In this document: positions 21,506 through 58,296 of the stretch, piece by piece
How positions within the stretch are numbered: position 1 is the first letter of the stretch
Layout: the number at the start of each line of letters is the position of its first letter
Origin: a virus
Length of the DNA stretch: 64,000 nt
Reading direction: 5' to 3' (one strand)
IMG/VR virus record: IMGVR_UViG_3300047554_000255
Location: 1-64,000 of that record
Program-made: the position numbers and the translations under genes
Notes under the pieces: model-generated
The model's input: the letters and a program-made list of their open reading frames with translations, nothing else
The model's database searches: none
Told to the model about the DNA's origin: nothing

Positions 21506-21517
21506 AGTGGTTAGATA

Positions 21518-23990: not shown

Positions 23991-23996
23991 GGTTTG

Positions 23997-24833: not shown

Positions 24834-24857
24834 ATTATATAGTGGTTAGGTGATTTA

Positions 24858-25046: not shown

Positions 25047-25062
25047 GGTTTATTTGTTTAGG

Positions 25063-38820: not shown

Positions 38821-39260
38821 CACACCTAAAGACTTGCTTATATCTTGATGATGTACGTACTCCACTAGAAGATAAGCCTGGATATCATCCATGGGTTATC
38901 GTTAGAAACTATGATCAGTTTGTTGAATACATAACTCAGCATGGAGTACCTGACTTTATATCGTTTGACCATGACTTAGGTAAAGAACATACTAATGACT
39001 ACTTTGCTCAAGTATTAGCTCAGGGTTTCCAAGATCCTAAGTACGATGACTATAAAGAAAAGACTGGTCTACACTGTGCTATGTGGCTAACAGAATATTG
39101 CATGGATAATAATGTTCCTCCAAAGACATGTGCTGTTCATAGTCATAATCCTGTAGGATCTAATAACATACAAAGTTGTATTAATAGTTTTAAGAAACAT
39201 CTAGGACTTCCTCAAGATTGTTATCTTGGAAGAGTACCTTTTAAAGTAACTGAAGAATGA
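38817..39260 (+). CDS. cyclic-phosphate-processing receiver-like domain protein
   Basis: LYLDDVR, ISFDHDLG, KTG..CA.WL, VHSHNPVG. Confidence 0.8.
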   Translation: MTHLKTCLYLDDVRTPLEDKPGYHPWVIVRNYDQFVEYITQHGVPDFISFDHDLGKEHTNDYFAQVLAQGFQDPKYDDYKEKTGLHCAMWLTEYCMDNNVPPKTCAVHSHNPVGSNNIQSCINSFKKHLGLPQDCYLGRVPFKVTEE

Positions 39261-39973
39261 GAAAGAATCTAATAGGTATATCAGGTAAGATTGGTTCAGG
39301 AAAAGATACGGTTGGTAAAATCATACAGTATCTAAGTTCTGAATCATCTCAACAAAGAGGTAGAACGTTTGAAGAGTTTCTTAGAGGGAATAGTAATCCA
39401 GATGCTTATGGTTATTACTACCACTCTGATTGGGAAATCAAGAAGTTTGCTGGTAAACTAAAAGAAGTAGCTAGTTTGCTTACAGGTATTAGCGTACATG
39501 ACTTTGAGGACCAGGAGTTCAAGAAAACTGAGTTAGGTCCTGAGTGGAATCAGACAAGACTTTATAATAGCAATGCTCCGTGGATGACAGGTAATGAAAC
39601 ATACGAAGTACCTTTAACAGTAAGAGAACTCTTACAAAAAATAGGTACTGAGTGTATGAGAGATTGCCTACATGAAAATGTATGGGTCAACGCTTTATTT
39701 GCTGACTATGAATGTACTCACTCAGATCATTCCCCACATGGAGTTGACTGTTCTCAATGGCTTATTACTGATACACGTTTTCCTAATGAAGCACAAGCTA
39801 TAAAAAGCAAAGGGGGGATCATAGTTAAGGTAACTAGACCAGGGGAACAACAAGGTACTCACCCTAGTGAGACTGCTCTTGACGATTGGGACTTTGATGT
39901 TGTTATAGAGAACAACGGATCTATAGAAGATCTAATAGAAAAAGTTAAGATACAGTTAGGAGATATGCTATAA
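39257..39973 (+). CDS. deoxynucleoside monophosphate kinase
   Basis: IGISGKIGSGKDT, FAGKLK, RELLQKIGTE, ITDTRFPNE, HPSE. Confidence 0.9.
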   Translation: MRKNLIGISGKIGSGKDTVGKIIQYLSSESSQQRGRTFEEFLRGNSNPDAYGYYYHSDWEIKKFAGKLKEVASLLTGISVHDFEDQEFKKTELGPEWNQTRLYNSNAPWMTGNETYEVPLTVRELLQKIGTECMRDCLHENVWVNALFADYECTHSDHSPHGVDCSQWLITDTRFPNEAQAIKSKGGIIVKVTRPGEQQGTHPSETALDDWDFDVVIENNGSIEDLIEKVKIQLGDML

Positions 39974-40283: not shown

Positions 40284-40313
40284 AAAAGGGGCCCTTAAAG
40301 CCCCTCTTCTTTT
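40282..40313. terminator. bidirectional terminator between convergent blocks
   Basis: A6-GGGGC-ccttaaa-GCCCCT-cttctttt. Confidence 0.7.
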
Positions 40314-43300
40314 ATCTAACGTTACCCATTCGACCTGAGTAGTAAATTATACGGTTGACGTTATTAACATAAGGTAAGGACTTACTAATCTTTAATAAAG
40401 TTCTCTCACCATCATATTCTAATGTACCCTCTTCATCTGTCTTCTCAACACGAGCAAGATAATATGTTGTTGCTACAACAGCATCTCTTGTTTGATTAAG
40501 AGTAGCTGTTATTGGTACAGCATTCTGTAATAGTTCAGAGAAAGAGAACGGGTTAATATAATATGTTAAGTCACGATTTAATAGAGTAAGCTGATTAAGT
40601 AATATGTTTGCATACTTCTTATCTTCATCGTCCTCATCATCACCTCCAATAGCAAGCTTTAATGCTAAGTAAGTCGCTGCTAGTACTACAATAGCTGCAA
40701 GCTCCATCATCATCTTTCTGATATTTGCAACCTGCATCTTATCTAATCCTTCAACTTCTCCTTTTGTTATAGCATCAATGATCTCTGATATTGATTCCTT
40801 TATTCTTAGACCATCATCGTTTATGAAGTTACCAAAGAATGTTTTATAGTATCCCTCTGTATCTCTCTCTAGTATAGGATCGTGACGCTTAGTCTCAAAA
40901 CGAGTAGCTAATGTTTCAGGCAACCATGATCTAAAGACGAATAAGATACGACCAATGATATTATCTTTACCAGCTAATGACTGAACATCACCAGAGAAAC
41001 CATGAAGCTTCTTTGAGATCTGATTAATCTTTAGCATTGATTTATCATATACTTCATCAAAGGTTTTACCACCATTTGCTTCCATATCCCACTCACCAAA
41101 CTTTTCAGTATCTATGTTAAGATCTTTATCCATGATCTCAAATAGATTAAACTCTCCTTTTGTTGTCTTAACTTTTGTGTTTAACAACATAGCAATAGCC
41201 GTCTGAGATCTAAAGAAATAATCTGTTGACTTCATCAAACTAAATGGACTAGGAATAGCACTCTTGATAGTATCAAGCATACTTCTACCGTTTAATCCTT
41301 TTATTGCATGAGCAAAGGTATTATCTTCTCCTTCAATAGTCTTAGTGTCAAGCATCATACGCAAAATCTTTTCAGACTGCTCTGACTCAATGGTTCCCCA
41401 TGATACATATTTAGCAACAGATGTCTTTAGTATAGAGGTTGCTTTTCTTAGTTGTGCTGAATCAAAGTCTTCTTTACCATAAGCATGTATCTGGTTATTG
41501 ACACCACCAACAGCTAAGTTTCGAACAGCTGAGAATGGGTTTAATGCAATACCTTTCTCTCTTGTAAACTTATTAAAAGCATCAAAGAAGCTACTAATAC
41601 TTAAGTTTCTACCACCAAGTTCATAATAAGCATCTGTCTTTTCTGTTATCTGACGTTCAATACTTTTCCGCTCAGCAGTTGTTAACGAGCGATTGTTCTC
41701 TAACTCTTGTGATAATGCTTCAAGTTCTTTCTCAAGAGCTTTTGCTTGCTTATACTTCTCAGACTTATATGTTCCAAGTGTTAATAACTCAAGTGAGTTG
41801 TAAAAAGGTCTGTCCATTACTCCTTCTGCTTCAGGAGTTATTCTATAGAATGATCTTAGTACAGTACTTTGAACCATCTCTTGTAAGACTTTTGGAGCCT
41901 CACTAACAACAACATCTCCTTTTAAACGTACATTCTTTGTTGAAGAAGTAGCACCTTGAACAATATTGTTGATCGTATCAACAGTATCCTGAACCTCAAT
42001 CTTATGTTTATAGATAAGAGCCATGTCACTGAACAGCTTTGCAATAAGATTTAAGTCTGTACTGCGTTGTTCAACTGGAACGTTCTCGTTTATAAAACGT
42101 GGCGTGAAACCATAACGTGTTACGCCGCTAATAGGATCAGCTTTACCTGCTGTCTTGTAATCGATTGTAGTTAAGTTTTTAAAAAACCACTCATCGATAC
42201 CTTTCATGCCTTCTTTAAGACCAGACAAACCATACTCTTTACTTAATCTTTCTGTTACAACAGGTAAGAAGTTAGACTGCAAAGAGTCAATCTCATCTTG
42301 TGGAAGATAAGACAACTGTTGCTTCATAAAGTCACGGAAGAAAACATAGAACTCATATAAGTCTTTATCTGCTGCAATCCTAGCAAAGTCTTGGTCATAG
42401 TAGTTACTATTAGTACCATTAACTATCTTACGTGGAATCTTGATAGAGTACTTACTGCCTTTTGTTACGGTTGCTCGATCAAACTTTAGCGTACCATTAA
42501 TCAAAGCATTGTATGCTAACGGATCATTGATCTTCTTCCACTCTTCAACTTGCTTCTCTATATACTCTTCGTCAGTACCATCCTCTGGTTGTAATACAAC
42601 AATACCTTTTATAATATCATCTTGCAAACTAATAGAGAATGTTTCTGCATCAGTAAGATACTGAGAGTAACGAGCTCGTGCTTGTTTAACAAAGTCATTT
42701 ATCTCTTCTGCAGTAAAGCCTTGATTCTTAAGATCGTTTATTACATTAAGTCTTTGCTCATCAGTAAAAGCACTTGTGTTAATAAAAGGAGCTGAGTTAA
42801 AAGCAATTGTGTGTTCTTTAACCCATTGGTTATGCTCAGCCCATACAGCAGCAACAACTTCTTTGTTATCTTTTGCTGTATCAAGATTCTCTTTTAACTG
42901 ACGGTATCTTCTTTTTATAGACTCATACCACTCCTGAGAGAAACGACCTTTAAATCCAAGAGTTTTGATAGGTTCACCAAAAGGATTCTTAGTCTCTTGC
43001 TGCTTAATAAACAGATCAAACCCGTTCTCTTTGAACAAAGGATTATCCATGATCTTTGCAGTTGCTTCGTCAATCTTTTTGTGATTACGGTTATGCTCTT
43101 TTTCAATACGCATATTAACCTCAGTGATCAACTTAGCTAGGTATCCAACAAGCTTGTTATCAACAGTTGTGATATCACGAGCTTTTGCTTTCCAATAGCT
43201 GACATCTTTCATTGCTTCGATGTCTTTTATTGTAACCTCTTGACCTTCACCAACATTCTTGTTGATTGCTTTTAGTATCTCGTTCTTTGCAAAGTAAGCA

Positions 43301-44133
43301 ATACGATTGTTAAAAGACTGAGCTGCATCATTAATCTCTATTAGAGTATCCCTAGTAGTAAAAGTACCATCTGAATCAGCAGGTACCTCCATGATGTTTG
43401 GAATATTAAACAAACGTTCCATGTTTGTCCAGGTCTTTATAATATCATCAGCAAGTAATAACTCACTTAATGATACAACAGAACCAGACAACATCTCTTT
43501 TATTGTTTGGATATCAGCTAAACCTTGAGCAACAACAATCTTAATGCTGTTCTCTTTTTGTAATGTATCTATCTGAGTCTCAAGACGTTTGATCAAAGCA
43601 TTATAATACTTTTCACGCTCAATCTTCTGCTCTTTTGAATACTCTTTGTTTAGCTTAGCTCTTTCTCTTGCATCAACATGTTGCTTGATACGATCTTTTA
43701 ACTCATCACGCATCAACTTAACTGTTGGAAGCAATCCTTTTATAGACTTAACTCTTCGTGAAGATAACTTAACATCTAATGGATGAGTGAACTCAATGAA
43801 GTCAAAGATAGAACGAGTAAGTCCATCCTTTGTAATAGTATAATCAGCATTAATCTTTGGCTCTTCTACCCACTGACCATACCATGACTGGAACTTTGGT
43901 GTGTACAACGTAAGATAAATACCTAAAGCTTGCTCACTAGGATCAGTAGTATTCTTTATGTACTTACCTACATGCTTTTGCAACGAAGCATTGATGTTTC
44001 CACCATGCTCCGCTGGAAGACCTTTAGTCTCAATCCCAGATAATATATCGTAATAAGCAGTTGATACTGTCTTCCCATCAGGTAGACGCACATCTGTGAT
44101 TAAGTTATTCTTTCTTTTAATAAGGCAAGCCAT
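40312..44133 (-). CDS. large virion cargo/ejection protein (1273 aa)
   Basis: Follows the virion RNAP as in crAss-like gene order; helical; hydrophobic segment near the C-terminus; single Cys at position 3. Confidence 0.75.
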   Translation of the reverse strand: MACLIKRKNNLITDVRLPDGKTVSTAYYDILSGIETKGLPAEHGGNINASLQKHVGKYIKNTTDPSEQALGIYLTLYTPKFQSWYGQWVEEPKINADYTITKDGLTRSIFDFIEFTHPLDVKLSSRRVKSIKGLLPTVKLMRDELKDRIKQHVDARERAKLNKEYSKEQKIEREKYYNALIKRLETQIDTLQKENSIKIVVAQGLADIQTIKEMLSGSVVSLSELLLADDIIKTWTNMERLFNIPNIMEVPADSDGTFTTRDTLIEINDAAQSFNNRIAYFAKNEILKAINKNVGEGQEVTIKDIEAMKDVSYWKAKARDITTVDNKLVGYLAKLITEVNMRIEKEHNRNHKKIDEATAKIMDNPLFKENGFDLFIKQQETKNPFGEPIKTLGFKGRFSQEWYESIKRRYRQLKENLDTAKDNKEVVAAVWAEHNQWVKEHTIAFNSAPFINTSAFTDEQRLNVINDLKNQGFTAEEINDFVKQARARYSQYLTDAETFSISLQDDIIKGIVVLQPEDGTDEEYIEKQVEEWKKINDPLAYNALINGTLKFDRATVTKGSKYSIKIPRKIVNGTNSNYYDQDFARIAADKDLYEFYVFFRDFMKQQLSYLPQDEIDSLQSNFLPVVTERLSKEYGLSGLKEGMKGIDEWFFKNLTTIDYKTAGKADPISGVTRYGFTPRFINENVPVEQRSTDLNLIAKLFSDMALIYKHKIEVQDTVDTINNIVQGATSSTKNVRLKGDVVVSEAPKVLQEMVQSTVLRSFYRITPEAEGVMDRPFYNSLELLTLGTYKSEKYKQAKALEKELEALSQELENNRSLTTAERKSIERQITEKTDAYYELGGRNLSISSFFDAFNKFTREKGIALNPFSAVRNLAVGGVNNQIHAYGKEDFDSAQLRKATSILKTSVAKYVSWGTIESEQSEKILRMMLDTKTIEGEDNTFAHAIKGLNGRSMLDTIKSAIPSPFSLMKSTDYFFRSQTAIAMLLNTKVKTTKGEFNLFEIMDKDLNIDTEKFGEWDMEANGGKTFDEVYDKSMLKINQISKKLHGFSGDVQSLAGKDNIIGRILFVFRSWLPETLATRFETKRHDPILERDTEGYYKTFFGNFINDDGLRIKESISEIIDAITKGEVEGLDKMQVANIRKMMMELAAIVVLAATYLALKLAIGGDDEDDEDKKYANILLNQLTLLNRDLTYYINPFSFSELLQNAVPITATLNQTRDAVVATTYYLARVEKTDEEGTLEYDGERTLLKISKSLPYVNNVNRIIYYSGRMGNVR

Positions 44134-44135
44134 AC

Positions 44136-47100
44136 TTATTTACATTGATTGTTTAAAGAGTAGTCACTAAGATTATCTGTCGCTGCACTAAACAAGGTTG
44201 TTTGACCTGTAGTATCTGTACTGTCTTCAGTCTTTGTATCAACAACACTAAGCAAGTTAGTAATATTTTTTATACCTTGATCTAATACTGAGTCAGTTTT
44301 TACATCCATACCTAATGCTTTTGTTAAAGCTTGAAGTAAACGCTTTAATATATCAGCAAACTTAAACGTCACTGTCTTCTTTGATGAGTCAACAGAAACT
44401 CCATTCATAAACTCCTGGAACTTCTTATCAGTCATTAACATACTAACAAACTCATGTTCGCTTGTTAAGCCGTAGTACATGCTCTTCTCGTCTTCTGTAA
44501 GAGTGTTAGCATCACTATCTTCAAACACAGAGTTAGAAACTTTTGCAATAACAGCCTTTAGTTTTTCAGCATGCTCTGGATTTGATAATAAAGACTCTCT
44601 TGTTAATAGATATAACTGCTTAATAGAAGCTGCATACATACGCTCTTCTTTAATCTTATAAGCAGAAGCCTTACCACTTAACTTGAACAATGACTGAGCT
44701 GTATATCCATGTAATAACTCATGAACAATAGCATCCTCAAGATTTTCACTTCTTGACTTAGCACTGTTACTTTGTAGTACAAGATCAGGATTAATCACAA
44801 TCTGATTAGTTACTGTATTGTATATCGCAGGATCAGAGATAGTATTTAACAATACAACTGATATTTTATTCACATCACCAGTAAACTTAAGTGAGTCAAT
44901 CAATACTTTGTAGAACTCATTAGATGTATTAGCTCTTACCTTTGTTAGAACAGAAGCAAGTGTATTAACACCTTCAGCATCAGGAATATAATCTTCTATT
45001 ACAGAAGTATCAGATGCTATTGGAGATCCGTTAGAAGCATTTGTATCTTCACCACTTAAGAATATCTCAGGATCAGAAGGCATATCAGCAAAACTAAACA
45101 AGTCCATACTAGCAACTACAACATCATCATCCATCTGAGGAATAAATGTATCCTCAGCAAATAAATCAGTAGGCTCTTGTGTAGGGATAGCTTCTCCGTA
45201 TTCTAGCTTAATATTATTAAACTGACCAATCTCAGAAGCTTTATATCCTTTTGCTTCAAGATAGTTCTTTACAAGAGTATTGATACCTTCTGCTTTACTG
45301 TATAATACAACAGATGCTTTTGCTTTTATAATACTCTCAAGCATTGGAACATATAGATCCTCAAACATTGGAGATAACTTATCAATAGCTTCGTTTCTTG
45401 TAATATGGTTAAGCTTAGCATCAGGTGATAATACCTCAATGAATCGCTCACCAGATACAAGAACTACATCTTTATCAGTATACTCACCTGTATTAATGTT
45501 TCCTTTATAACGTGATGATAAAATATTATGCTTGTTCGTAGGATTGTTAGCATCATAAGGGAATGATACTGCCGTAGTTGCATAATTAGATAACTCAATC
45601 TCATCAACAACAAGACTAGTATTACCTGCAAACCCAATAAATGGATTGGTATCAGCTGTAATAATCTTCTCAAGCTTCTGACTTGGTAACAAGTTACTAA
45701 AGTCAACAGAGCGCATTGTTGCTGGATTAACACCTAACTGATATTCATATGCTGAGTTGTTTCCTAGTGTTTGTATTCTCTTGTATGAGTTTTCTCCAAT
45801 ACGTTTAAATAATAGTATTTGACTATTAACATAGTAACGCAAGAACTTAGGGAATGTTGGTACTGTATTCTTATAACCTTCAAGCGACTGGAAAGAACTG
45901 TTTATAAGCAAATGAGTCATGTTTTTTGGTAAAGTATAAATACTTTCTCCTCTTGAATCTTTTGTTACAGTATTTGCATTTGTCAACGCTTTATATGCAT
46001 CCTTATCAATATAAGAAGCCATATCAGGATTATTCATGATATACTGCTCATAGAAGTTATCAACGTTTTGTCTAAACGTGTCATAGAACTTACCAATGAA
46101 ATCTGTGTGCTGCTTATTAAGCAATCTTACTTCAATAGGAATGTATCTAAAGAACGAAGCTTTATCTGCAACAGATCCACTAACAAACGCATACTTGATT
46201 AAGTCTTTACCAATACTTGCTATCTCAGGATCTTCGTTTAGCATTAAGTCTAAGAAGCCTTTATTGTTTGCAAGCTCGTCAATGTCTTGACTAAATGGAG
46301 ACTTATACTCTACTGATTTAATACTTAATCTTGTTTTACCTGCTGGTATAACGGGTTTTAATCTAGCAAAGAAGTAGTTGTTCTTTAACTCTGGATACTT
46401 GATGTTTAAGGCAAGAATACGCTCAGCTAAAGAAGGATTTTGTTCTGTACCAACAAGAAGTCTATATCTCTCTTCTTCCATATCACCAGTAATAAAACCA
46501 GCTTCTGGGCTACTGTAGATATATGCTTTCAAGTTGCTAAGAACATCTTCAGCTAAAGCATTAAACTTAATTCGACCATAGTTGTCAACACCACCTTTGC
46601 CCTTGTTCTTTTGAGTAACGATCTCTTCTAATAAGTTCTGGAATACTGTATCAAAGTGAATAGGAGATACCTTACTTAATACCTTATATGCTAAGAAGAT
46701 ACTATTCTTCACAGCATGACCAGTCTGAGTAGTTGGTGTAAAGTCAACGCTTTCACTAATTGGATCAGTCTCAAACTTACCAAAGATAGTATCGATGTTT
46801 AATAATCTATCAACAACTACAGGATCTCTTTTTAATGGCTTAATAACAACAGGTAAGCCTTCGCCGTATTGAGTATCAGCAGCTTTTGCAATACTCTGGA
46901 ACTTACGATACTTACTTAGTAAAGTAAACAAGTTAGATCCAATACCTTGACTAATAACGTTACTGTTATTTAATAATGTTGATTGAGGTGTGCTGTAAGC
47001 ATGTAGTGTCTCATAGTAAGTAAGAATAGATAACTGCTTCATGATAAACTCATCAAGTGCTTTTCTATCTTCTGGCTTAAAGTTGATATCTGCTGGCGAA

Positions 47101-50100
47101 TAAGCAAGCATGAGTTGATTCAACTTAGGTCGCAGTACTACTTCCTCTTTTAAAAGATCAAGAAGCTCTTTCGGATTAAGTACTGGCATAGCACCAATAT
47201 TCTCTTCTGTTGCAAGCTCTTTCGCATTTGGACTTAATAGATTAATAAAATGTCTCTTAACATCAGCAATGATCTCAGATGTATACTTCTTTTGTCCAAT
47301 AGCAAAACTATCTTTTGATATCTCTTCTTGTTCGTTAAGATACTTAACAATAAACTGAGGGAAGAAACGTGTTACGTAACGTAAGTCAGCAATCTCACCA
47401 CTGTTAGAACTTAATGACATAAGTAACTTAGCTGGCGCCATTGAGGCACTATTCAAGTTAAATACGTTAAGGTTCTTATTCTTTGCGTTGTCTAATGATT
47501 CGTTAAGAGTAGCAGAAGCATTCTGAGTCTTTGATCTTGTTAATGTCTTACCCGTAGCATCGCTCTTAAATGTAGTATTACCTTCTGCAGTTAGATAGCT
47601 AAGATTTACAATCTCACCGCTATCTTTCTTAATGTTAATACCAGCAGAAAAACCAACAGTCTTTTTGTCTTGATGTTCAGCAAGGAATGATAATAGCTGA
47701 GCAAAGATACCTGTACCTAGTTTACCACTTCTATTATCTAAGAACGTATTAATCTGAGTATTGTAATCAAACGGTAAGAAGTTAACTGGTAATGTTGCAA
47801 TACCTTCTTTATAGAATAACTCTTTCTCATCGTTGTAATCAGACAAGTCAATAGATGACGTAATCTTATCAAACGTTGTTGGGTGAGTAAGTACTGACCA
47901 GTGTATATCTTTATACATCTCAAACAACTGCTCTTCTGATAAAGACTTTGGATCAAAGTTTTTAAAATCGCTAATAGACGACTCGTAAGCAACTGGCTCA
48001 ATAGATTCAATCTGTGACTTCTGTGCTTTTATCTTATCGTTTATAGCAGTTAACTCAGCAGCTCTTTGACTCTTGATCTTATACTTTGTTTGATTAAGCT
48101 TCTTACGCTCCGTACCATTAGCTACTTCATTATAAACAGCAGATCTCTTCTCATACAAACCATCAAGAATACGTTGCTTTTGCTCACGCTCTTTCTCACC
48201 TAGATTCTTATAACCTAAACGAGCTCTATACTTTTCAATACTTTCATTAAGCTTTGCGATCTCGAACTGTTGCTCACTATTAAGAAGCTTTGCTAAATCA
48301 CCATCTACTTTTTCTAACTCTTCTTTGTACTTGTTCTTTATAGCTTCTTTCTCTTTTGTAAGCTCATCTATTAACTTAGATGCAGAATCCTTGTAAGTAT
48401 ACTTAGGATTAGATAGATATGCGTATAACTTATCAACGTCAAAGTCAGAACCCATTTGTGCTGTAATACCATCAGGAACAATAATAGTGTTCTCCATATA
48501 TGATGGTAAGAAACCAGCAACTTCAATAGGAAGCATTGATGAGTGTAGCTGATTTGGAATACGTGCACCAATAAGTTGTAATAACTTTCTTGGAATACGT
48601 GTACTATCAAGAATCAATCTACCGTTCTCATCTTTTGTAGCAAAATCTTTTATGTTTATAAGCTTTCCGTTCTCATCCTTTAAGAACTGAGACATGAATA
48701 CTTGTGCTGCTTGTACTTCACCTTTCTTTACCTTCCCACCTTTAGCTACAGTATCAGCTTCTTTTCTGATATACTGTAATCCTTTTGATGCATCATACAC
48801 TTCTGTATAAACAATCTCACTCTTTAGCTTATCAGATAACTCACCCTCTTTAATCTTTGTACCAACTGCAGATACTTGTACTAATGATGTACCAGTAAGC
48901 TTTAGCTTCACTACTTTACTAAAGATAGATGTAAGTAATCCTTCGAACTTAGAGCTGTTTGATAATAGATATACAGGTATAACTAACTTACCGTCTTTGT
49001 TTGTTGCAATAGAACGGATATCGTTTATACTTAAGTTACGAGAAACTGCTTCTTCTTTTAATAAGTTAGCAAGACTTCTCTCACTCTTGAAAGAAACATA
49101 CTCATCAGTTATTGAAACACCTATTCTATCAAGAAGCTCTTCAGCATTGCCTTCAAATAAAGCAACACGAATCTGTTCTTTCAATCCTTTTAACTGAGCT
49201 GCAGTAAGTTTCTTACCTGCAAACATAAAGTCAAGAACATTATCAAGACCTTCGAATAACTGACGGTCCATCTGACTAACAACGTTAATCATCTCTTTTT
49301 GATGAGGAATCTCTTGTTGTGTACGAAGACCTTCTCTTGAAAGAGTCTGCACGTTAGAAGAGAACTCAGCTTCAGATGGCTCAATAAAGTTACCATTATC
49401 ATCAAACACTTCTAGTGTCGATATTGGAGCACCTGTTTTTGTTGCCGTCTTAAATGCAGCAGAACCAACGTTGTTTTTCTCCATGAATACACGAAGCTTA
49501 TCCATCTCTGAATCGCGTGTGTTATCTGGAATAAGAGGATATGCTGAAGACTTAACGTAGTTAATCTCATTAAAACCATCAGTCTCAGAGTTAGAAGAGT
49601 GTACAGGCTTTGTTGGCTGTAATACAAAACCTAACTCAATATCAGATAAAGAGTAATCAAAGGTTTTCTTCTTACGAGCTTCTGCTATCTTATCAGAAAT
49701 ACTCTCATAAATATCTAAAGGTATTCTACCCTCAGACATCATACGATTAATATGCTCTTGTAATGTAACAAACTCCTGAGCATCCGTTGTTTCAATCTTG
49801 CTAAACTGATCGTTAGACTTAATCACGTCTTTTAACGTAATCATCTTGTATAAAGATACATCAACAATCTTTCCCTTTGTGCTTTGCCAAGTTGTGGTAC
49901 CCTGAGAACCAGGAGCAATAAACATAGCAGCACGTTTTGAGAACTCATCAACTGTACTTAGTACTGTACCGTTAAGAACATCGTTTATAATATTACGTTT
50001 GCTCTGCTCTTCTGGTGTCATCTCAGTTGATACATTGTATGACAATAACTGATTAACAGTCATTGACTCACCAAATACCTCTTTGATTTGATCAGCACTA

Positions 50101-52625
50101 ACAAGCTTTGATTCTTTATAGAACAAAGCCATATCAGCACCTAATACTTGAGTAGTATTGATTTGAGCTCTAAGAACATTATACTTTAAATCTGCAATAG
50201 CAAAGATCGCTTTACTTGAATCTTGTAGCTGTGAAAGCTGATTCATGTAAACATTATTAAAGAAAGGAAAGTAATAAGATGTCTGCACTCTATTTGTCGC
50301 TGGATCAATACTAGTTGGTCCTTTTGATATAATGTTTTTACGCAACAAGTTAGACAACTCTTTTATAACGTCATCTTTTATTGACTCACCAATAAGATCT
50401 TTTAAGTATTGAGCATCTTCTATAGATGGTTCAACTCCTTGATAGATCTTTGTTCTGATCATGTTAAGCTTTGCATCAGAACGATTGTTTAATACTGGGA
50501 ATAAAAAGAACATCTTACTAGCTGTTTCAAAGTTAGCAATGTTCAGCTTTTCTTTCTTAGTATAGTTAGCATACGCAATCATACGATCTATCTCAGCTTT
50601 TGCTAGATCATATAACTTATTCTTGAATGCGTCTTTAAACTGGAATGAATCTCTAACGGTTGGCTTAGTCTTGAAGAAAGCAAAATCAGTTGATGGATCA
50701 AGACTATCTTTTGTTATCTGTATTACCGGAGCAGTTGTCTTATCCGATAAAGTAAACATATTATAGTAACCAGTCTTAGCAAAGTTATTCTGATGCTTTA
50801 AATATGTATCAAGAATCAACTCTCTTGGCGATTGGTTCTTCTTAACCTTACCAATCTCTCCTTTCTTATCTTCTTTTATACTATCTGAATACGATATTGC
50901 ATAAACAAATGATTCGTTATCAGTCTTCTCGTCTTCAAGCAAACGTCTAACTACTTCTGAACTTTTACTATAAGCTCTTTTACTTAATACCTCTAAGAAA
51001 CTCTTTGTCTTTAGCTTCTTCTTTACTGTTTCTAAGTAAGAAGGTTGTACATAAGCATAGATGTTTTTGTTCTCACCATTCTGATAGCTACCAGTTTGAT
51101 AGATATCTGAGTGTAGATCATAGTAAAGACTTGCAAGTATATTAAATACACGCTCGTGAACAATAGGGTTGTTCTTGTCTTCGTAGTTTGCTGACTCAGT
51201 TGTTGTATCAATATCAGCTGTTAACGTATTAAGAATATTATCAACAACATTACCTGTTGCAAGTAAATCAGAGAAGCTCTTTGCTTTAAAGGTTTTGAAC
51301 TTGTTTGCTTTTAATGCTGCTCCAACATGTTTCATGTAAGCATCATCAACAGGAATATTCATTGAAGTAAGTAACTCTTTAAAGAACTCTTGTTTCTTTG
51401 TTAAGTTATTACCAGATCTAATCTCTAAGTACTTCTCTTTCAATGACTTAGCTAACTCAGTGTTTATAACTAAGTTGCCAAACTTATTCTTGTTAACAAG
51501 CTTTGATACTTTTTGTAACTCTAACCAATCGTTTTTTATTTGTCTAACAACACTATTACGATTAGAGCTAATAACCTTAACACTTACACCACCTTCTTTA
51601 ACTTTCTCCCAAAGCAACATAGTATGATCTGTGTATGCTTTGTTTATTACAGTAAGTACTTCGTTTAGTAACTGAACATTCTTTGATGCTTGTAACTCAC
51701 CTAACTTCTTGTGAACGTTTAATAGGTATGGCTTAACTTGAGCTTTCTCTAAAATAGCTTCTTGTAAAGACTCATAAGTAACATGTTGTAATCCTGCACC
51801 TAATACAAGTAAGTCTTCAAATACTTGATCGTAAGGCACGAAATCAGCAAGACCTAATAGATTAGCCTTGTCACTCTTAATACTTGAAAATAACAGCTTT
51901 ACACGAGTCGTAGCTGTATCCTTTGGGTTCATCTGGAATGAACGTGAATCAGAAAAGCTTTCATTTACAGAAGGGTCTTCAACATCAACATCGTCTTCAC
52001 CAAATAACTCACCTGCATCAGCAAGTAAGCTCTCATAATATTCGTTTGTTAAACCAAAGTCTTGGATCTCGTTTTCAGATGTAACCTTTAGTCCTAAACG
52101 ATTAAGCTTAATGATAACTTGCTCTGTGAACTTATCGAAGTTCTCATCATCAGTAACGTTATCTAGCAACTCTCCAAGATAAGAGAATTCCTTGTAGTTA
52201 AGAATACCAAGCTCAGGTATCTTAGAAAGCATATCTTCTGTTGCTGATTCTTTTAAAGCATTATATGCTTCTTCTGAAGTAGCAATATTCTCAGTAAAGT
52301 ACTTAACCTTTAAAGCTGTGTTCTTTAACTTACTCTTTATATCAGCAAATAAAACACGAGATGATTTCTCATACGTACCACCTGGCTTTAACAAACCAAG
52401 CTCATCAACGAACTGTGAAAAGATCGCGTTCGTTATTGACTGCTCTTGTACAAGATTAAATAAGTTGATGTTAACAAAGCGATCTTCAACAGCTTGTTTT
52501 ACAAGATCTAATAATTGTTCATCAGACAAACCTTCATTACCTGGTAGAGTAGCAGCACTCTTTAGAATCTGCTTAACCTCTACTTCTGAAAACTCTGATC
52601 CGCTAATGTTATATAAACATGCCAT
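44136..52625 (-). CDS. virion-associated RNA polymerase of crAss-like phage (2829 aa), with C-terminal zincin-like domain
   Basis: RIPNQ...QMGSDFDVDKLY catalytic DxDxD (~48432-48446); TDAQ and LQPTKP motifs; HELLH near the C-terminus. Confidence 0.9.
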   Translation of the reverse strand: MACLYNISGSEFSEVEVKQILKSAATLPGNEGLSDEQLLDLVKQAVEDRFVNINLFNLVQEQSITNAIFSQFVDELGLLKPGGTYEKSSRVLFADIKSKLKNTALKVKYFTENIATSEEAYNALKESATEDMLSKIPELGILNYKEFSYLGELLDNVTDDENFDKFTEQVIIKLNRLGLKVTSENEIQDFGLTNEYYESLLADAGELFGEDDVDVEDPSVNESFSDSRSFQMNPKDTATTRVKLLFSSIKSDKANLLGLADFVPYDQVFEDLLVLGAGLQHVTYESLQEAILEKAQVKPYLLNVHKKLGELQASKNVQLLNEVLTVINKAYTDHTMLLWEKVKEGGVSVKVISSNRNSVVRQIKNDWLELQKVSKLVNKNKFGNLVINTELAKSLKEKYLEIRSGNNLTKKQEFFKELLTSMNIPVDDAYMKHVGAALKANKFKTFKAKSFSDLLATGNVVDNILNTLTADIDTTTESANYEDKNNPIVHERVFNILASLYYDLHSDIYQTGSYQNGENKNIYAYVQPSYLETVKKKLKTKSFLEVLSKRAYSKSSEVVRRLLEDEKTDNESFVYAISYSDSIKEDKKGEIGKVKKNQSPRELILDTYLKHQNNFAKTGYYNMFTLSDKTTAPVIQITKDSLDPSTDFAFFKTKPTVRDSFQFKDAFKNKLYDLAKAEIDRMIAYANYTKKEKLNIANFETASKMFFLFPVLNNRSDAKLNMIRTKIYQGVEPSIEDAQYLKDLIGESIKDDVIKELSNLLRKNIISKGPTSIDPATNRVQTSYYFPFFNNVYMNQLSQLQDSSKAIFAIADLKYNVLRAQINTTQVLGADMALFYKESKLVSADQIKEVFGESMTVNQLLSYNVSTEMTPEEQSKRNIINDVLNGTVLSTVDEFSKRAAMFIAPGSQGTTTWQSTKGKIVDVSLYKMITLKDVIKSNDQFSKIETTDAQEFVTLQEHINRMMSEGRIPLDIYESISDKIAEARKKKTFDYSLSDIELGFVLQPTKPVHSSNSETDGFNEINYVKSSAYPLIPDNTRDSEMDKLRVFMEKNNVGSAAFKTATKTGAPISTLEVFDDNGNFIEPSEAEFSSNVQTLSREGLRTQQEIPHQKEMINVVSQMDRQLFEGLDNVLDFMFAGKKLTAAQLKGLKEQIRVALFEGNAEELLDRIGVSITDEYVSFKSERSLANLLKEEAVSRNLSINDIRSIATNKDGKLVIPVYLLSNSSKFEGLLTSIFSKVVKLKLTGTSLVQVSAVGTKIKEGELSDKLKSEIVYTEVYDASKGLQYIRKEADTVAKGGKVKKGEVQAAQVFMSQFLKDENGKLINIKDFATKDENGRLILDSTRIPRKLLQLIGARIPNQLHSSMLPIEVAGFLPSYMENTIIVPDGITAQMGSDFDVDKLYAYLSNPKYTYKDSASKLIDELTKEKEAIKNKYKEELEKVDGDLAKLLNSEQQFEIAKLNESIEKYRARLGYKNLGEKEREQKQRILDGLYEKRSAVYNEVANGTERKKLNQTKYKIKSQRAAELTAINDKIKAQKSQIESIEPVAYESSISDFKNFDPKSLSEEQLFEMYKDIHWSVLTHPTTFDKITSSIDLSDYNDEKELFYKEGIATLPVNFLPFDYNTQINTFLDNRSGKLGTGIFAQLLSFLAEHQDKKTVGFSAGINIKKDSGEIVNLSYLTAEGNTTFKSDATGKTLTRSKTQNASATLNESLDNAKNKNLNVFNLNSASMAPAKLLMSLSSNSGEIADLRYVTRFFPQFIVKYLNEQEEISKDSFAIGQKKYTSEIIADVKRHFINLLSPNAKELATEENIGAMPVLNPKELLDLLKEEVVLRPKLNQLMLAYSPADINFKPEDRKALDEFIMKQLSILTYYETLHAYSTPQSTLLNNSNVISQGIGSNLFTLLSKYRKFQSIAKAADTQYGEGLPVVIKPLKRDPVVVDRLLNIDTIFGKFETDPISESVDFTPTTQTGHAVKNSIFLAYKVLSKVSPIHFDTVFQNLLEEIVTQKNKGKGGVDNYGRIKFNALAEDVLSNLKAYIYSSPEAGFITGDMEEERYRLLVGTEQNPSLAERILALNIKYPELKNNYFFARLKPVIPAGKTRLSIKSVEYKSPFSQDIDELANNKGFLDLMLNEDPEIASIGKDLIKYAFVSGSVADKASFFRYIPIEVRLLNKQHTDFIGKFYDTFRQNVDNFYEQYIMNNPDMASYIDKDAYKALTNANTVTKDSRGESIYTLPKNMTHLLINSSFQSLEGYKNTVPTFPKFLRYYVNSQILLFKRIGENSYKRIQTLGNNSAYEYQLGVNPATMRSVDFSNLLPSQKLEKIITADTNPFIGFAGNTSLVVDEIELSNYATTAVSFPYDANNPTNKHNILSSRYKGNINTGEYTDKDVVLVSGERFIEVLSPDAKLNHITRNEAIDKLSPMFEDLYVPMLESIIKAKASVVLYSKAEGINTLVKNYLEAKGYKASEIGQFNNIKLEYGEAIPTQEPTDLFAEDTFIPQMDDDVVVASMDLFSFADMPSDPEIFLSGEDTNASNGSPIASDTSVIEDYIPDAEGVNTLASVLTKVRANTSNEFYKVLIDSLKFTGDVNKISVVLLNTISDPAIYNTVTNQIVINPDLVLQSNSAKSRSENLEDAIVHELLHGYTAQSLFKLSGKASAYKIKEERMYAASIKQLYLLTRESLLSNPEHAEKLKAVIAKVSNSVFEDSDANTLTEDEKSMYYGLTSEHEFVSMLMTDKKFQEFMNGVSVDSSKKTVTFKFADILKRLLQALTKALGMDVKTDSVLDQGIKNITNLLSVVDTKTEDSTDTTGQTTLFSAATDNLSDYSLNNQCK

Positions 52626-52626
52626 A

Positions 52627-55600
52627 TTAGTTACACTTCTTGTTAAGTTTATTCTCGTTCTCTAGTTTCTTAGTAGTAGTTGCTATTGACTTCAACTCAT
52701 CATCGTTACCTTTGATTAGATCTTTGTTAACTGTTTGGTTAGTACCAAACTGTTGTCCAAAGTCCATATCCATGAACTTAGCCAATGCTTCTTCTTGAGA
52801 TAAAGGTGCTTGTGATTTAGATGTATCCGTTACATTAATATACGCAGAATCATTGACTTTAGCCTCCTCTTCAGCAATTAACATAGTGTATCTTGCATCA
52901 ATCTCTTTTGCTTTTTCTTCGTAGTATTTTACTTGCTCAGGTAATGCATTAATTGCTTCTTCTGCAGTATCATACTCATCAATAGTAGAACCATCTGTAT
53001 CATCAATAATCTCATTACCATTAAGAACTGGTTTACGAACCAACTCTAGTTCTTTTGCTTGCTTTTCTTTTAACTTACTAATAGCATCAGATGTAGATAA
53101 AGTAGGAGCTATAGGAGCAGGAGCTTTTGGTGCAACTTCAGGTTTAGTACCTGATGATGGAGTCTCTGAATCTATATTACCAAATACAACAACAGGGTTA
53201 GAGAAGTGTACTAACTCATCAGCATCTGTATTAGCTTCATCGTAAGGACGTCCTTCTTCTAATGTAGTCTCAAGTGTTTGTAACATATATTCGTTATACG
53301 TCATAGGCTGTGATTGCTCTAAAGCACCAGTATCAGGATTGATAGTAAGATCAGTCATTAACTTATCATTACCAATACCTGCTGATTGCTCAGTACCAAA
53401 GCGTATACTGTATCTTAAGTTTGCTGCAATATCGTAAAACTTATTGATTTTTTCTTCTGATATCTCATCTAAGTTTCCGATAATAAGACTATCTTTCTTC
53501 TTATCACCTGTGTTTACTTGCCATATTGATAAGTATCCTTTTGGTGTAATGTTAAAGTGAACCTTACCTTGACTTATTGGATTGTATGCTTTTGAGCTAG
53601 TATGAGTAATATAATCATTAACATACTTGCTTAAACGTGCAAAGTCAGCAGTCTCTCCGTCAATAAACTCAATACCATAAGCTTTGTACACAGCTTGGAT
53701 AATAGCAAGATCACTATCTTTACCATTCTTTCCTGCTGCTACATCAACGTTATAGTTATGAAACGCTCTCCATGAACCAAGAATAAAATCAATATGTCCG
53801 TCTTTTAATACAGGAACTGTAACAAGAGAAGCAAGACGCTTACCTGTTGGAGTTGGTATTATAGCAACTGGCCATCCATTAGCTTTACCGTCAGTAATAA
53901 TGTTTGGTACATAAAGATTACTCTCAGAGTACTTATCAGTAACATGTACTTTACCTTGCTTGATAATAGCAACTTGAGTATTCTTACTTAAAGCTTGCTT
54001 CAATGGTTTCTTTGAACCGTCAGTTCTTAGTACACCAACTGACTTTGCTATTACAGTACTTGTAAATACAGTTGCTTTATCTTTATTAAAGCCGTTGAAC
54101 AATGCTTTTCTATGATCAAGAATAGCTTGACGTTGAATAGCAAGGTTATCAATAACGGTACCGTCAGGTGTAACAATACGTTCTTTTGTGTGAGCTAATA
54201 CTCCTGAGTCAGAATATCTAGCTGTAACAAACTTAACTGTTGGTAAGTATCCAAGCTTTATCTTTTTACCATTATGCATAGTATAGATAGCAACTGGGAA
54301 GTCATCAATAGCTTCTTGTTTTATTTTACCGTCAGCATCAAAGAAGTCTTCTTTCTTACGCTTTGTGATACCAGTTTGTTGAACGTAATCATAATCATCA
54401 AAGTCAGCAATGTTAGAATCAATCTCAAACATTAAAGGAGTACCTTCTTGTATACGAGATGTTCCTAAGATTAATGGATAAGACTCATTACCGTCAGTAC
54501 GCTTTAATCTACGTACACCTTTTTTATCTGTATATACTACAAAGTTATCAGATGCATTGTTAATCTTTGATCCAGAGTTGATTGGAGTTCTTGAATCTTC
54601 CTCAACAGATGTATCAGGATTTGTACCATCAACATAATCAATATCAACATTATCCGTAGTATACTCAAGAGCATCAAGATCAACATCTTCTTCTTGAGCT
54701 TCTTTTGCTTTCTGTACTTCTTTCTTCTGAGCTTCAGTAACCGTAGCTACTGGAGTGACCATTGTTTTTGCTTTTGGATTAGAAGATACAGTAATAGCAT
54801 TGTTTGTAAGGAAATCAGCTAACTGCTTATCTGTAAGCTCATACTCTGATTCATTACCATGTTGTACCCAAACTCTATCTTTACCAACAGAAACAATTTT
54901 GACTACTATCTCTGAACCATCAGTTGGTACTATATAATTACCAAGAACAAACTTAACTCCGTTTACTTCAAGACTATTGTTAGGATTAGCTTCATATTCT
55001 TCTTGCTCAGGATCAAGTTGTTCTTCATCAACAACTACTGGAGTCTCAGTTGGAGCTTCAGCAACTACTGGAGGTTGTTCAACTTGAACAGCTTCTTCTG
55101 GAGTTACTGGTACTGGTTGATCTTCAGTTGATACTTCTAGTGTTGGTTCAACCTCTGTAGGCTCTGCTACTTCAGTTGGAATATTATTAGATGACTTAGC
55201 ACCTGTATAAGTAAACTCAACATCAGTGTAGTTCTCTTTTGAAGGATGAGCAATATTAAACGCTATATCTTTATTATTAACACCGTAGTTTAAAAGAATC
55301 TCTCTACCTTTTGTGCTAAATCCAACAAAAGCAGCAGGGTTCATAACCCCCATACCCTCTTCAGATATCTCTAGTTGTGACTTAATTACTTGGATATAAC
55401 CTTCTTTTAAATCTGCAAGAAGAGCTTCAACATTTATAGTTCCTCCTTCTGGTGCATTTGCTGCATCTTCAACATCTTCTGTTAAGTCAGATGTATCAGC
55501 ATCAGTAACGTTCTCTCCATCTTCTGGTGCTACAGCTCCTGTAAGAGCATCTGTAAATGATTTAGTAGCCTCATCCTTTGCTTCTTTTGCTAACTGCTCT

Positions 55601-58296
55601 TGTACTACTTTCTTTGCAGCCTTCATACGATTAGCTAAAGCAACAATACTTGTTGGATCTGCTAGGAAGTTATAAGCATTAAGATGTTCTTCAGAGTCAT
55701 TGTTTAACTGGATGTACTCTAATAGATCTTCGTAAGTCTCATCAATATCTGTATTAGATAAAAGAGCAGTGTTTAAACCAGCTTCTTCAGTCTTATAGTT
55801 AATGAATCTCTTGTAAGCATCTTTTGCATAACGTTGCTCACGCTTAGACATGTTAGTCTCATCGCGATTAGATAACTTCTCCCATGAGTCTAACCACTTT
55901 GCAATAGCTTGTAGTTGACGCTCTTTATACTTAAGAGTTTGTGCCTCTTCAGGAGTACGCTTCTTTACTTGTTTAAGGTTGTCTATCTCCTTTATAAGAA
56001 GATCCATCTCACCAAGCATCTTAGCTTGAGAACCTAATACTTTATATGCAGCAGAAGCGGCTCCTCCAAGGTTAGGATTAGCAGCAGCTCTTGTGTATAA
56101 GTTATTTGCTCTTTCAATAGCAGACTTTGCTTTGAATGAGTTTGTTGCAAGCATCTCAATATAATCATCAAGAACACTCTTTAACATCTGAGCATCTTTC
56201 TGACCTTGACTACCTTCAGCGTATAAATCTGGTTGGATTAAATCGCCATACTTTTCGTTTAACGTTTCCCATGTTTTGTTAAACGTTTCAACATCATCAG
56301 CAATCTTGTTAAAGTATTCCTTAACAGACTTAGCACTATCAACTGTTGGATCTAAGCCGTATGCTTCTTTTGCATCCTCAACACTAAATGATTCTCCTTG
56401 ACCTCTAATAGTATCAATCAAAGCAGAAACCATACCTGCTTTCTTTGCAGCTGAAACAGCTTTTGCAAATGCAGTATCTCTTGAGTTGTAGTAAGTATAC
56501 TTATCTTTATTACCAACAGCTTCCTGCATTGTAGCAGCAGCCTTATTTTGAACCTTAAAGTTTGCTATCTCATCTTTTAATACAGCATAAGGATTCTTGT
56601 AGAACTCGTTTATCGCAGCAACAGTAGCAGCCTTATCTTTCTTTATCTCTTCTCTCTGCTTATCAGTGGTCATCATACGTTCTTGTACTTTGCCCATTGT
56701 AAAGTTGATTGGAGATAATAATCGACCAGTAACAGCACCCATCAAGAATGTCTTCATTCCTTGAGTATCTGCTAATGGATTCTGAACACTACTCATGATA
56801 GCATCAGTCTTACCAGAGTATCCTTTCTTACCATGATATAAGTCATAGTAATAATCCTGAAGACCCTTGTTAGAACCTTCTTGGAATAACTCTTGTAAAC
56901 CTTCTGATGTCTCCCACTTGAATAAGTTCTTTCCAAGAAACTTACTTACTTGCCATGCTGCTTCCTTTTTACCAAAGTCAGTAGCAATCTCTTTTGCTGC
57001 ACCAAGAGCTCCTAATGAACCAACTTGATATACTTTAGTCAGTTCTTTATCAGCAACCTTACCTGATACCTTTAATACGTCATCAGCATATTGTCCAACA
57101 TTCTTGAATAATCTACGCTCAGCATTAAAGTGACCAAGCATGTTATCAAACTGGAATCTATTAAGAGCAAATAGCATACCAAAGTTAACGTTGAAGTTAT
57201 CTGAGGATGCATCTTTTGATACTCTATCAATACGCTCTAAATCTTCACCAACTGGTAACTCACCTGTTCTTTCAAGATGCTGTTCTGTTAAACGATCTTT
57301 AAGTTCTTTGTATGTACCAGCTGCTTCAAAAATGGCTTCTGAGCGAGCCATGTTAGCTTCACTTAACGTTCTTCTAAACCCACCAAAGGTTAACGCTGCA
57401 ATCTGAGCAGCACCTGCACCATTCTTACCAGCAACAACTGCTTTCTCAATAGCGTTTGTAGTAGATCCAATAGGATTAAACTTCTGGAAACCTTTCCATA
57501 TAGTCTTTGCTAATCCTTCTTGTTTATAAATATCTCCAAGTGATTTGTTTAATCTTGCAAACTCTTCAACGTCTTGAAGCTTATCAACCCCTTTCATGAA
57601 TCGCATTCCAAGCTTTGTAGCTGAGAATAAACTAGATGCACCAAAGGTTAATAACTCTTCTGATAAAGCTTGAGCAATCGCACCAACTGCAAAACCTGAG
57701 TTCTGAACAAGATCACCAAAGAATTGCTTGTTAAACACAGACTTCTCTGAATCAGCACTTCTAAAGATAGCGTACTTATTCATTACATCTTCTTGCATCT
57801 TTGCCATCTGATACATCTCTGTTTCATCTGGTTGTAGCTTTGATGCATCAAAAGAAGTCATTGCATCAGCAAGTCTTCCCCAACCTTTCCATCCTTCAAG
57901 GAATGTATTAGAAGCTAGACGACCTGCACCTGCAAAAGCATTACCCATTGTATCACCCCAAGTTTGTCTTGACGCATACAACTCTTCATTATTTCTTCTA
58001 GGATCAAAACCGAGCTCAGCAGAGTATGATGAGTTAGTATATCTATCTAACTGTGTCTGCTCAGGATTAAAGTTTATTGGCTGCATTTGAGTGGACAAAG
58101 AAGGTCCACCTGCCAATGCTCCTGATAAAAAAGAAGCCGTAGGATCAGCAGTAGATGAGCTAACTAGTTGTTGTGCTTGTTCTTGACCACGTTGCTCAAA
58201 AGGATCGATAAAATCTAACAGCTTTGGCTCTAAGTCTGGTGTTTTAATATCAGGACCTCCAAGGCTATTATTGAGCGAGTTTAATATAGACTCCAT
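52627..58296 (-). CDS. large virion cargo/ejection protein (1889 aa)
   Basis: Upstream of the RNAP; Gly/Ala-rich amphipathic N-terminal region, EGLQELFQE motif, acidic Pro/Glu linker. Confidence 0.75.
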   Translation of the reverse strand: MESILNSLNNSLGGPDIKTPDLEPKLLDFIDPFEQRGQEQAQQLVSSSTADPTASFLSGALAGGPSLSTQMQPINFNPEQTQLDRYTNSSYSAELGFDPRRNNEELYASRQTWGDTMGNAFAGAGRLASNTFLEGWKGWGRLADAMTSFDASKLQPDETEMYQMAKMQEDVMNKYAIFRSADSEKSVFNKQFFGDLVQNSGFAVGAIAQALSEELLTFGASSLFSATKLGMRFMKGVDKLQDVEEFARLNKSLGDIYKQEGLAKTIWKGFQKFNPIGSTTNAIEKAVVAGKNGAGAAQIAALTFGGFRRTLSEANMARSEAIFEAAGTYKELKDRLTEQHLERTGELPVGEDLERIDRVSKDASSDNFNVNFGMLFALNRFQFDNMLGHFNAERRLFKNVGQYADDVLKVSGKVADKELTKVYQVGSLGALGAAKEIATDFGKKEAAWQVSKFLGKNLFKWETSEGLQELFQEGSNKGLQDYYYDLYHGKKGYSGKTDAIMSSVQNPLADTQGMKTFLMGAVTGRLLSPINFTMGKVQERMMTTDKQREEIKKDKAATVAAINEFYKNPYAVLKDEIANFKVQNKAAATMQEAVGNKDKYTYYNSRDTAFAKAVSAAKKAGMVSALIDTIRGQGESFSVEDAKEAYGLDPTVDSAKSVKEYFNKIADDVETFNKTWETLNEKYGDLIQPDLYAEGSQGQKDAQMLKSVLDDYIEMLATNSFKAKSAIERANNLYTRAAANPNLGGAASAAYKVLGSQAKMLGEMDLLIKEIDNLKQVKKRTPEEAQTLKYKERQLQAIAKWLDSWEKLSNRDETNMSKREQRYAKDAYKRFINYKTEEAGLNTALLSNTDIDETYEDLLEYIQLNNDSEEHLNAYNFLADPTSIVALANRMKAAKKVVQEQLAKEAKDEATKSFTDALTGAVAPEDGENVTDADTSDLTEDVEDAANAPEGGTINVEALLADLKEGYIQVIKSQLEISEEGMGVMNPAAFVGFSTKGREILLNYGVNNKDIAFNIAHPSKENYTDVEFTYTGAKSSNNIPTEVAEPTEVEPTLEVSTEDQPVPVTPEEAVQVEQPPVVAEAPTETPVVVDEEQLDPEQEEYEANPNNSLEVNGVKFVLGNYIVPTDGSEIVVKIVSVGKDRVWVQHGNESEYELTDKQLADFLTNNAITVSSNPKAKTMVTPVATVTEAQKKEVQKAKEAQEEDVDLDALEYTTDNVDIDYVDGTNPDTSVEEDSRTPINSGSKINNASDNFVVYTDKKGVRRLKRTDGNESYPLILGTSRIQEGTPLMFEIDSNIADFDDYDYVQQTGITKRKKEDFFDADGKIKQEAIDDFPVAIYTMHNGKKIKLGYLPTVKFVTARYSDSGVLAHTKERIVTPDGTVIDNLAIQRQAILDHRKALFNGFNKDKATVFTSTVIAKSVGVLRTDGSKKPLKQALSKNTQVAIIKQGKVHVTDKYSESNLYVPNIITDGKANGWPVAIIPTPTGKRLASLVTVPVLKDGHIDFILGSWRAFHNYNVDVAAGKNGKDSDLAIIQAVYKAYGIEFIDGETADFARLSKYVNDYITHTSSKAYNPISQGKVHFNITPKGYLSIWQVNTGDKKKDSLIIGNLDEISEEKINKFYDIAANLRYSIRFGTEQSAGIGNDKLMTDLTINPDTGALEQSQPMTYNEYMLQTLETTLEEGRPYDEANTDADELVHFSNPVVVFGNIDSETPSSGTKPEVAPKAPAPIAPTLSTSDAISKLKEKQAKELELVRKPVLNGNEIIDDTDGSTIDEYDTAEEAINALPEQVKYYEEKAKEIDARYTMLIAEEEAKVNDSAYINVTDTSKSQAPLSQEEALAKFMDMDFGQQFGTNQTVNKDLIKGNDDELKSIATTTKKLENENKLNKKCN

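Follow-up and report, generated by a model that had tools for sequence, protein, structure and literature searches.

Facing terminal cysteines in the crAss-type RNA polymerase cargo module point to a putative head-to-tail disulfide joining of giant ejection proteins

How do crassviruses pack, order and deliver an RNA polymerase cargo of >0.5 MDa through a narrow tail? Bayfield et al. went no further than to consider the order of the cargo 'likely controlled by packing and mutual interactions'. The question arises with the IMG/VR virus record IMGVR_UViG_3300047554_000255, of whose 111,220 bp the first 64 kb (positions 1 to 64,000, hereafter the window) were analysed. The minus strand of the window carries five cargo open reading frames (ORFs), among them that of a giant RNA polymerase (RNAP), which are nearly free of cysteine (Cys) and whose four Cys all lie at ends where one protein faces the next. 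We propose that these facing Cys act in pairs and that they probably join three of the proteins head to tail by disulfides.

The first link of the putative chain is a protein of 1889 amino acids (aa) of the phi14:2 gp67 / crAss002 gp32 family (52627-58296, minus strand, as are all five), which ends KKCN and has its sole Cys at residue 1888 (codon 52633-52635). The middle link, a 2829-aa virion-type two-barrel RNAP (44136-52625), starts MAC and ends NQCK, and contains no Cys other than residue 3 (codon 52617-52619) and residue 2828 (codon 44142-44144). The last link, a 1273-aa protein in the position of phi14:2 gp65 / crAss001 gp49 (40312-44133), again starts MAC, residue 3 being its sole Cys (codon 44125-44127). 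At junction J1 (52617-52635, minus strand) the message reads ..AAG AAG TGT AAC TAA, T, ATG GCA TGT.. (KKCN / MAC) and at junction J2 (44125-44144, minus strand) ..AAT CAA TGT AAA TAA, GT, ATG GCT TGC.. (NQCK / MAC). The original prediction, made from the sequence of this DNA, had described four Cys in five cargo ORFs, all at facing ends, and gaps of 1-2 nucleotides (nt) between the chain genes; upon checking ORFs and codons all positions and coordinates were exact, and the gaps read directly are 1 nt at J1 and 2 nt at J2. By script count, the five cargo ORFs hold 4 Cys in 7,870 residues, a frequency of 0.05% vs 0.98% in the other 53 ORFs of the window, a rate that predicts ~77 Cys, and base composition alone would place ~208 Cys codons in the cargo block. 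The probability that four randomly placed Cys would fall one within 3 residues of each facing end is ~5e-13. The other two cargo ORFs lie outside the chain and have no Cys. One, upstream of the chain, encodes a 1010-aa protein (58300-61332, minus strand), the relatives of which are likewise without terminal Cys. The other, 805 aa from its first ATG (61389-63806; feature 61389-64000, minus strand), runs off the window, and in the full 111,220-bp record it extends to 64535, giving 1048 aa and still no Cys.

What are these proteins? Judged by homology, the 1889-aa protein, the RNAP and the 1273-aa protein are a crAss-type RNAP cargo module. The RNAP matches PDB 6VR4, which is phi14:2 gp66 (E 6e-23), and phrog_16227 of PHROGs, and tblastn with it retrieves RNAPs from Flavobacterium phages, from phi14:2 and from gut crassviruses. 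Its catalytic DFDVD motif (residues 1394-1398; 48432-48446, minus strand) has D1394, D1396 and D1398 invariant in a 49-sequence alignment, and a HExxH zincin-like motif (residues 2635-2639; 44709-44723, minus strand), located 194 residues before the C-terminus, aligns with the HExxH region of phi14:2 gp65. The profile of the 1889-aa family matches phi14:2 gp67 (E 3e-30) and crAss002 gp32 (E 5e-22), the 1273-aa protein has a homologue in crAss001 gp49 (E 1.5e-10), and these giant flanking proteins keep the order gp67/gp47-type, RNAP, gp65/gp49-type protein. The phi14:2 and crAss001 counterparts are virion components by mass spectrometry, and by homology the module proteins of the window phage are presumably packaged and ejected as well. 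Other searches returned little. None of the five cargo proteins has a Pfam match, and in PHROGs there is, besides that of the RNAP, a single weak match of the 805-aa ORF to an entry of unknown function. Neither the 1273-aa nor the 1889-aa protein matched a PDB sequence, and megablast against GenBank phages likewise left the region without a match. An AlphaFold2 model of residues 1-1200 of the 1273-aa protein (predicted local distance difference test 78.9, predicted template modelling score 0.74) is mostly helical and places Cys3 just ahead of an N-terminal beta-hairpin. Searched whole, this 1200-residue model gave generic helical solenoids in Foldseek (best E 0.039) and only helical hairpins in VIA-align (Z up to 10.3). 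A complex prediction from alignments of the C-terminal 150 aa of the RNAP and the first 850 aa of the 1273-aa protein scored 0.00 and bears neither way on their contact.

Is the placement of the Cys peculiar to this phage? Conservation of the terminal Cys in orthologues had been predicted and was borne out by a database search that yielded 93 RNAP homologues of 25-100% identity (that is, down to ~25%). A Cys is present in the first 8 residues of 66/93 and in the last 15 residues of 77/93; in 61/93 all Cys are terminal, and 3/93 have no Cys at all. The Cys frequency over these homologues is 0.059% of 329,293 residues. In a 47-member alignment of the 1273-aa family, whose members are 13-80% identical to the window protein, M1 and C3 are the sole invariant columns. 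The C-terminal Cys of a junction, which we call the donor, is followed by no residue in 18 cases, one in 39 and two in 17, and by up to 14, whereas the N-terminal Cys that faces it, the acceptor, is residue 3 in 41 cases, 4 in 21, 5 in 19 and 6 in 2. Lys is enriched at positions -3 to +1 around the donor, and acceptor residue 2 is mostly Ala, Ser or Gly; removal of the initial Met is therefore favoured. We also note that Pro-Asn often comes directly after the acceptor Cys (C-P-N), in unrelated lineages and at J1 as well as J2 (for example in the loci L004, L005, L031, L014, L029, L054, L073, L076 and L079).

The same rule holds in the cultured and reference crassviruses phi14:2, Fpv20, crAss001, crAss002, cr55_1, cr8_1 and cr111_1. 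With negative numbers counting back from the last residue, phi14:2 has Cys at -1 in gp67, at 3 and -2 in gp66 and at 3 in gp65, and Fpv20 at -2 of its fused RNAP and at 3 of gp34. In crAss001 the sole Cys of gp47 is at -3, gp50 has Cys at 5, -1079 and -9, and the sole Cys of gp49 is at 5. Consecutive proteins carry Cys at -3, then at 5 and -3, then at 3 in cr111_1, at -4 and then 5 in cr55_1, and at -2 and then 5 in cr8_1. The gp67-gp66-gp65 proteins of phi14:2 and gp47-gp50-gp49 of crAss001 are thus homologous to the window module and follow an identical terminal-Cys rule. In crAss002 (L084, NC_055828) gp32 ends ..FVCS and the first Cys of the annotated gp33 (locus positions 12899-25636) is residue 35. 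Since this Cys directly follows the internal Met33-Ser34, the start of gp33 is probably annotated 32 codons too early, and with initiation at Met33 the protein would start MSC, as is usual. The 170-nt gap 3' of crAss002 gp32 contains a hairpin-like element. In cr8_1 (L090) and cr111_1 (L091) a thioredoxin gene is annotated near the RNAP module; to tie it to the reduction of joints would be pure speculation.

Do the two sides of a junction go together? We tabulated the junctions between Cys-poor ORFs of at least 500 aa, using 78 distant loci from IMG/VR and two close ones, the tally spanning 79 loci. Cys was found on both sides of 75 junctions, on neither side of 83 and on one side only of a single junction, in L012 (Fisher p 2e-45, uncorrected for phylogeny). 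On a tree of the RNAP core there are at least 9 changes of state at J1 and at least 10 at J2, and the partners change together each time; taking independent pairs on well-supported branches the agreement is 5/5 and 4/4 (combined sign test p 0.004). The change counts are approximate, the tree being a FastTree reconstruction with several long branches, and four trait cells were corrected by hand before counting: in L072 the partner had been dropped by the Cys-density cut-off, in crAss001 (L083) and L080 it lies on the other strand, and in crAss002 the start was moved. Read from these alignments and tallies, the pairing rule is real, is conserved throughout the order and is tied to gene architecture.

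The architecture itself varies, the module being encoded as one, two, three or four ORFs in other phages. If the Cys mark breaks between proteins they are expected to disappear where genes are fused, and this loss, also predicted, is what we find in five C-terminal and 15 N-terminal fusions. In L009, L027, L036, L057 and L059 the RNAP ORF carries the 1273-aa family as a C-terminal fusion (E 1e-31 to 1e-46; in L009 and L036 the fused junction is mapped only to within ~100 residues), and in each of these five the RNAP lacks a C-terminal Cys. Likewise, in 15 loci the RNAP ORF begins with ~1,500 residues of the 1889-aa family, and an N-terminal Cys is present in 0/15. In L008 and L064 the whole module is fused into single ORFs of >6,385 and >6,744 aa that run off the contig and have no Cys. 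A bond between the two ends of the RNAP itself, i.e. intramolecular cyclisation, was considered and rejected, given that each of the end proteins has a single Cys and that in fused forms only the outward pair remains.

Breaks also occur at sites other than J1 and J2. In six complete loci (L029, L050, L061, L063, L065 and L078) the break falls within the catalytic core, hidden Markov model positions 1-295 lying in one ORF and 288-510 in the next, and L075 has the same split with its second half cut by the contig end. The new ends read ..NCD (or ..KCD, ..KCE, ..KKC) and MACQYF... Between the core halves lies a 158-aa ferritin-like / rubrerythrin-like gene (PF00210, E 3e-12; L029:13078-13554, likewise in L050, L061, L063, L065 and L078). 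The J2 break differs in position too. In phi14:2 (L081) it precedes the zincin domain, with the HExxH at gp65 residue 245, whereas in the window and 68 other loci it comes 170 to 1,350 residues after the HExxH. The HExxH domain is in the RNAP ORF in 69/72 loci, the window included, and in the downstream ORF in phi14:2 and L051. The domain being found in different ORFs, the break point of the module must have moved in evolution, and since new breaks at other sites carry the pair, the Cys pair follows the break and not a fixed site.

It could be argued that what is conserved is a signal in the nucleic acid, such as translational coupling at the stop-start, or that Cys merely drifts neutrally where it is tolerated. 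In the window J1 and J2 are indeed alike at the DNA level, both fitting TGTAAnTAA(n)ATGGCnTGy. Yet in crAss001 gp47 is on the strand opposite to gp50 and gp49, in L080 the partners are on opposite strands as in crAss001, in L025 two unrelated genes are inserted between ..TCKY and MILSC.., and in the split-core clade, too, a gene separates the partners. The offset between Cys and stop moreover varies from 0 to 14 residues, and neutral drift does not agree with near-perfect covariation and an invariant C3 in proteins of 14-40% identity. These results already contradict both forms of the explanation, to which we give next to no credence. Frameshifting or readthrough was also rejected, the downstream frame being +1 at J1 and +2 at J2 and the crAss001 partners being on opposite strands. 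Judging from these arrangements, the terminal-Cys rule follows the order of the proteins, independent of gene adjacency.

What, then, do two such thiols do? Taken together, the covariation and the fusion data imply that they work jointly, in place of a peptide bond. The part of the original prediction that linked the 1889-aa protein, RNAP and 1273-aa protein in this order through their facing Cys is thereby strongly supported with respect to pairing, by conservation, by loss upon fusion and by order prevailing over adjacency; the chemistry is what we infer. We favour a disulfide because it is the simplest chemistry and has a direct precedent, and consider it likely, from the sequence pattern, that the facing terminal thiols form inter-protein disulfides joining the three proteins head to tail.

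The precedent comes from cyanopodophage A4 (Anabaena phage A-4L; PNAS 2025), where cryo-EM shows a disulfide between gp27 Cys1715 and gp26 Cys5 in the capsid pre-ejectosome (PMC12002296). We checked the sequences: the sole Cys of A4 gp27 (1717 aa) is at -3 and that of gp26 (1114 aa) is residue 5, and Pf-WMP3, a distant relative of A4, has the same signature at 23% identity. Like the window phage, A4 has consecutive, otherwise Cys-free ejection proteins in which a Cys near the C-terminus faces a Cys at residue 3-6; unlike it, A4 has one pair only, lacks an RNA polymerase and is a member of a T7-like phage family. No homology was detected by hhalign between the 1273-aa family and A4 gp26 (probability 0.05%, E 0.84), and no fold match emerged from the model searches described above, whose best hits were generic helices. 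By analogy the crAss system may work as A4 gp27-gp26 does, but we cannot call it a member of that family. The A4 study read the bond as stabilising a pentameric core, and a family-wide rule or covariation with fission and fusion is absent from it (PMC12002296).

The A4 structure also inspires the most serious alternative, namely that the same disulfides are static and serve to set the stoichiometry of the RNAP module and its position on the portal, in an ordered core resembling the A4 pre-ejectosome, with no thread involved. The A4 bond is part of a ring in which gp27 and gp26 alternate about the portal axis, with the C-terminal helix docked in a cleft, and covariation with fusion and fission would be equally expected if the ends merely had to stay together. 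Such a role, however, accounts neither for the Cys being within a few residues of the chain ends nor for the tolerance of any break position, and no ordered density of the RNAP module is resolved in crAss001; we regard it as rather unlikely.

Two further chemistries deserve consideration. The facing Cys could remain unoxidised and jointly bind a metal (Cu(I), Zn or Fe), or form another thiol bridge, as a reversible clasp. Covariation only needs two thiols acting together, one clade has the ferritin-like gene at its split-core junction, and gut hosts are anaerobes. Two thiolates alone are a weak site for most metals, though, neither end is flanked by a conserved His, Asp or second Cys, and the sole solved case of the signature, that of A4, is a disulfide, so that we find a clasp improbable. 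We think it far less probable still that the ends are ligated covalently, by thioester-mediated joining into one chain, or are recognised by the zincin protease. Fused relatives do show that a continuous chain is functional, and Cys is a nucleophile in protein splicing. Against this, there are no Hint or intein blocks, no split-intein (Hint) halves for trans-splicing flank the breaks of the window and Pfam is empty there, only one residue follows each donor Cys of the window and two precede each acceptor (0-2 and 2-5 among the relatives), and annotation based on mass spectrometry treats the proteins of phi14:2 and crAss001 as separate species.

Returning to the disulfide reading, we propose the following. 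At a break of the module each of the two new ends carries one Cys, 0-2 residues from the C-terminus (rarely up to 14) on the donor side and at residue 3-6 on the acceptor side. The disulfide would form in the assembled, oxidised virion and tie the three proteins into a chain of 5,991 residues, replacing the peptide bond of fused relatives. Lys near the donor Cys, and Met removal at the acceptor, which would set the thiol beside a free amine, may be expected to lower the pKa of the thiols and favour the reactive thiolate. The position of the Cys at the extreme ends would leave the joint almost as thin as a single chain, the exclusion of other Cys would prevent wrong cross-links, and a thin joint would fit a chain that passes the portal and tail constrictions partly unfolded. 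Partly unfolded passage of the cargo has been proposed for crAss001, and crassvirus virions contain inter-subunit disulfides in the tail and portal vertex (PMC10172136).

The consequences for delivery can be stated with decreasing confidence. Whether the disulfides keep stoichiometry and order during packaging and ejection appears to us an evenly balanced matter. Passage of the proteins as one thread, with release by reduction in the cytoplasm, is a plausible but more tentative suggestion. Equally tentative is the broader idea that one giant ejection polyprotein can be joined by a peptide bond or, interchangeably, by a terminal disulfide, a thread of ~6,000 residues leaving through the tail and host reductants cutting the joints, by which the RNAP would be freed and activated without a protease. 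Under such interchangeability, it is conceivable that the gene could be broken almost anywhere (here at no fewer than 3 distinct sites) provided that both new ends gain a Cys. AB-type translocated toxins offer a likeness of mechanism only, from an unrelated system: their cargo chain is tethered by an interchain disulfide while it crosses a narrow channel, and the bond is reduced once in the cytosol. For phage the likeness is hypothetical.

Several observations speak against such a chain. The junction tallies take in related genomes, and the counts are not fully independent. In L012, the partner starts MQHC, the sole RNAP Cys is 398 residues from the end, and a Cys-free 584-aa ORF lies between the RNAP and that partner; in L051, where J2 is broken before the zincin domain, there is no Cys on either side. 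The host cytoplasm is reducing, and the bond would have to form in the capsid or after lysis. Of the T7 internal proteins gp14, gp15 and gp16, only gp14 has a Cys, a single one at residue 2; Cys is avoided there, but no facing pair exists, and therefore the rule is not general to podophages. Finally, the bond itself is deduced from sequence patterns, and the cited papers on crAss-like phages do not mention it.

Schitoviridae eject a giant virion RNAP, as the window phage presumably does, and like it show strong Cys suppression; their polymerase belongs to a different RNAP family. That Cys is avoided in ejected proteins had been taken as established, and it is indeed documented for N4 gp50 and DEV gp71-73, Cys being suppressed in the ejection operon (PMC11445570). 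The Schitoviridae proteins have essentially no Cys anywhere, in contrast to the four conserved terminal Cys of the window phage. Full-text literature searches yielded no account of terminal Cys in the crAss cargo: the phi14:2 RNAP preprint, which suggests that fused forms are cleaved, has neither 'Cys' nor 'disulf' in its text, and in the crAss001 atlas the disulfides listed are all in proteins of the tail and the portal vertex. The suggestion that such a link had not been described thus stands, within these searches, for crAss-like phages and does not hold for the kind of bond, given A4 gp27-gp26 (PMC12002296).

Elsewhere in the same record, beyond the window (64603-98129; L087, L088), many tail and structural ORFs have Cys as their last residue or as residue 3. 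A 330-aa ORF (77379-78371) ends ..TPTC and, 2 nt on, a 320-aa ORF (76414-77376) starts MACPVTR; other Cys-ended ORFs are of 1183 aa (..VEFC), 765 aa (39 Cys; ..LGPC), 143 aa (..VVDC) and 184 aa (..GQYC). This suggests a wide use of terminal disulfides in this virion. In the replication/early region of the window, Pfam matches were obtained for a cREC_REC receiver domain (E 7e-22; 38817-39260), a spore-photoproduct-lyase-like protein (E 4e-12; 5486-6358), a metallophosphatase (2835-3554) and a dNMP kinase (39257-39973), all on the plus strand.

If the proposed bond is real, a conserved, redox-sensitive, end-to-end tether would provide a concrete mechanism, testable at the bench, for the ordering and delivery of the RNAP cargo, and it would account for the free splitting and fusing of the module across the order. 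The sequence rule may in addition be used to predict cargo partners, to find those encoded on the opposite strand and to correct start codons, such as that of crAss002 gp33.

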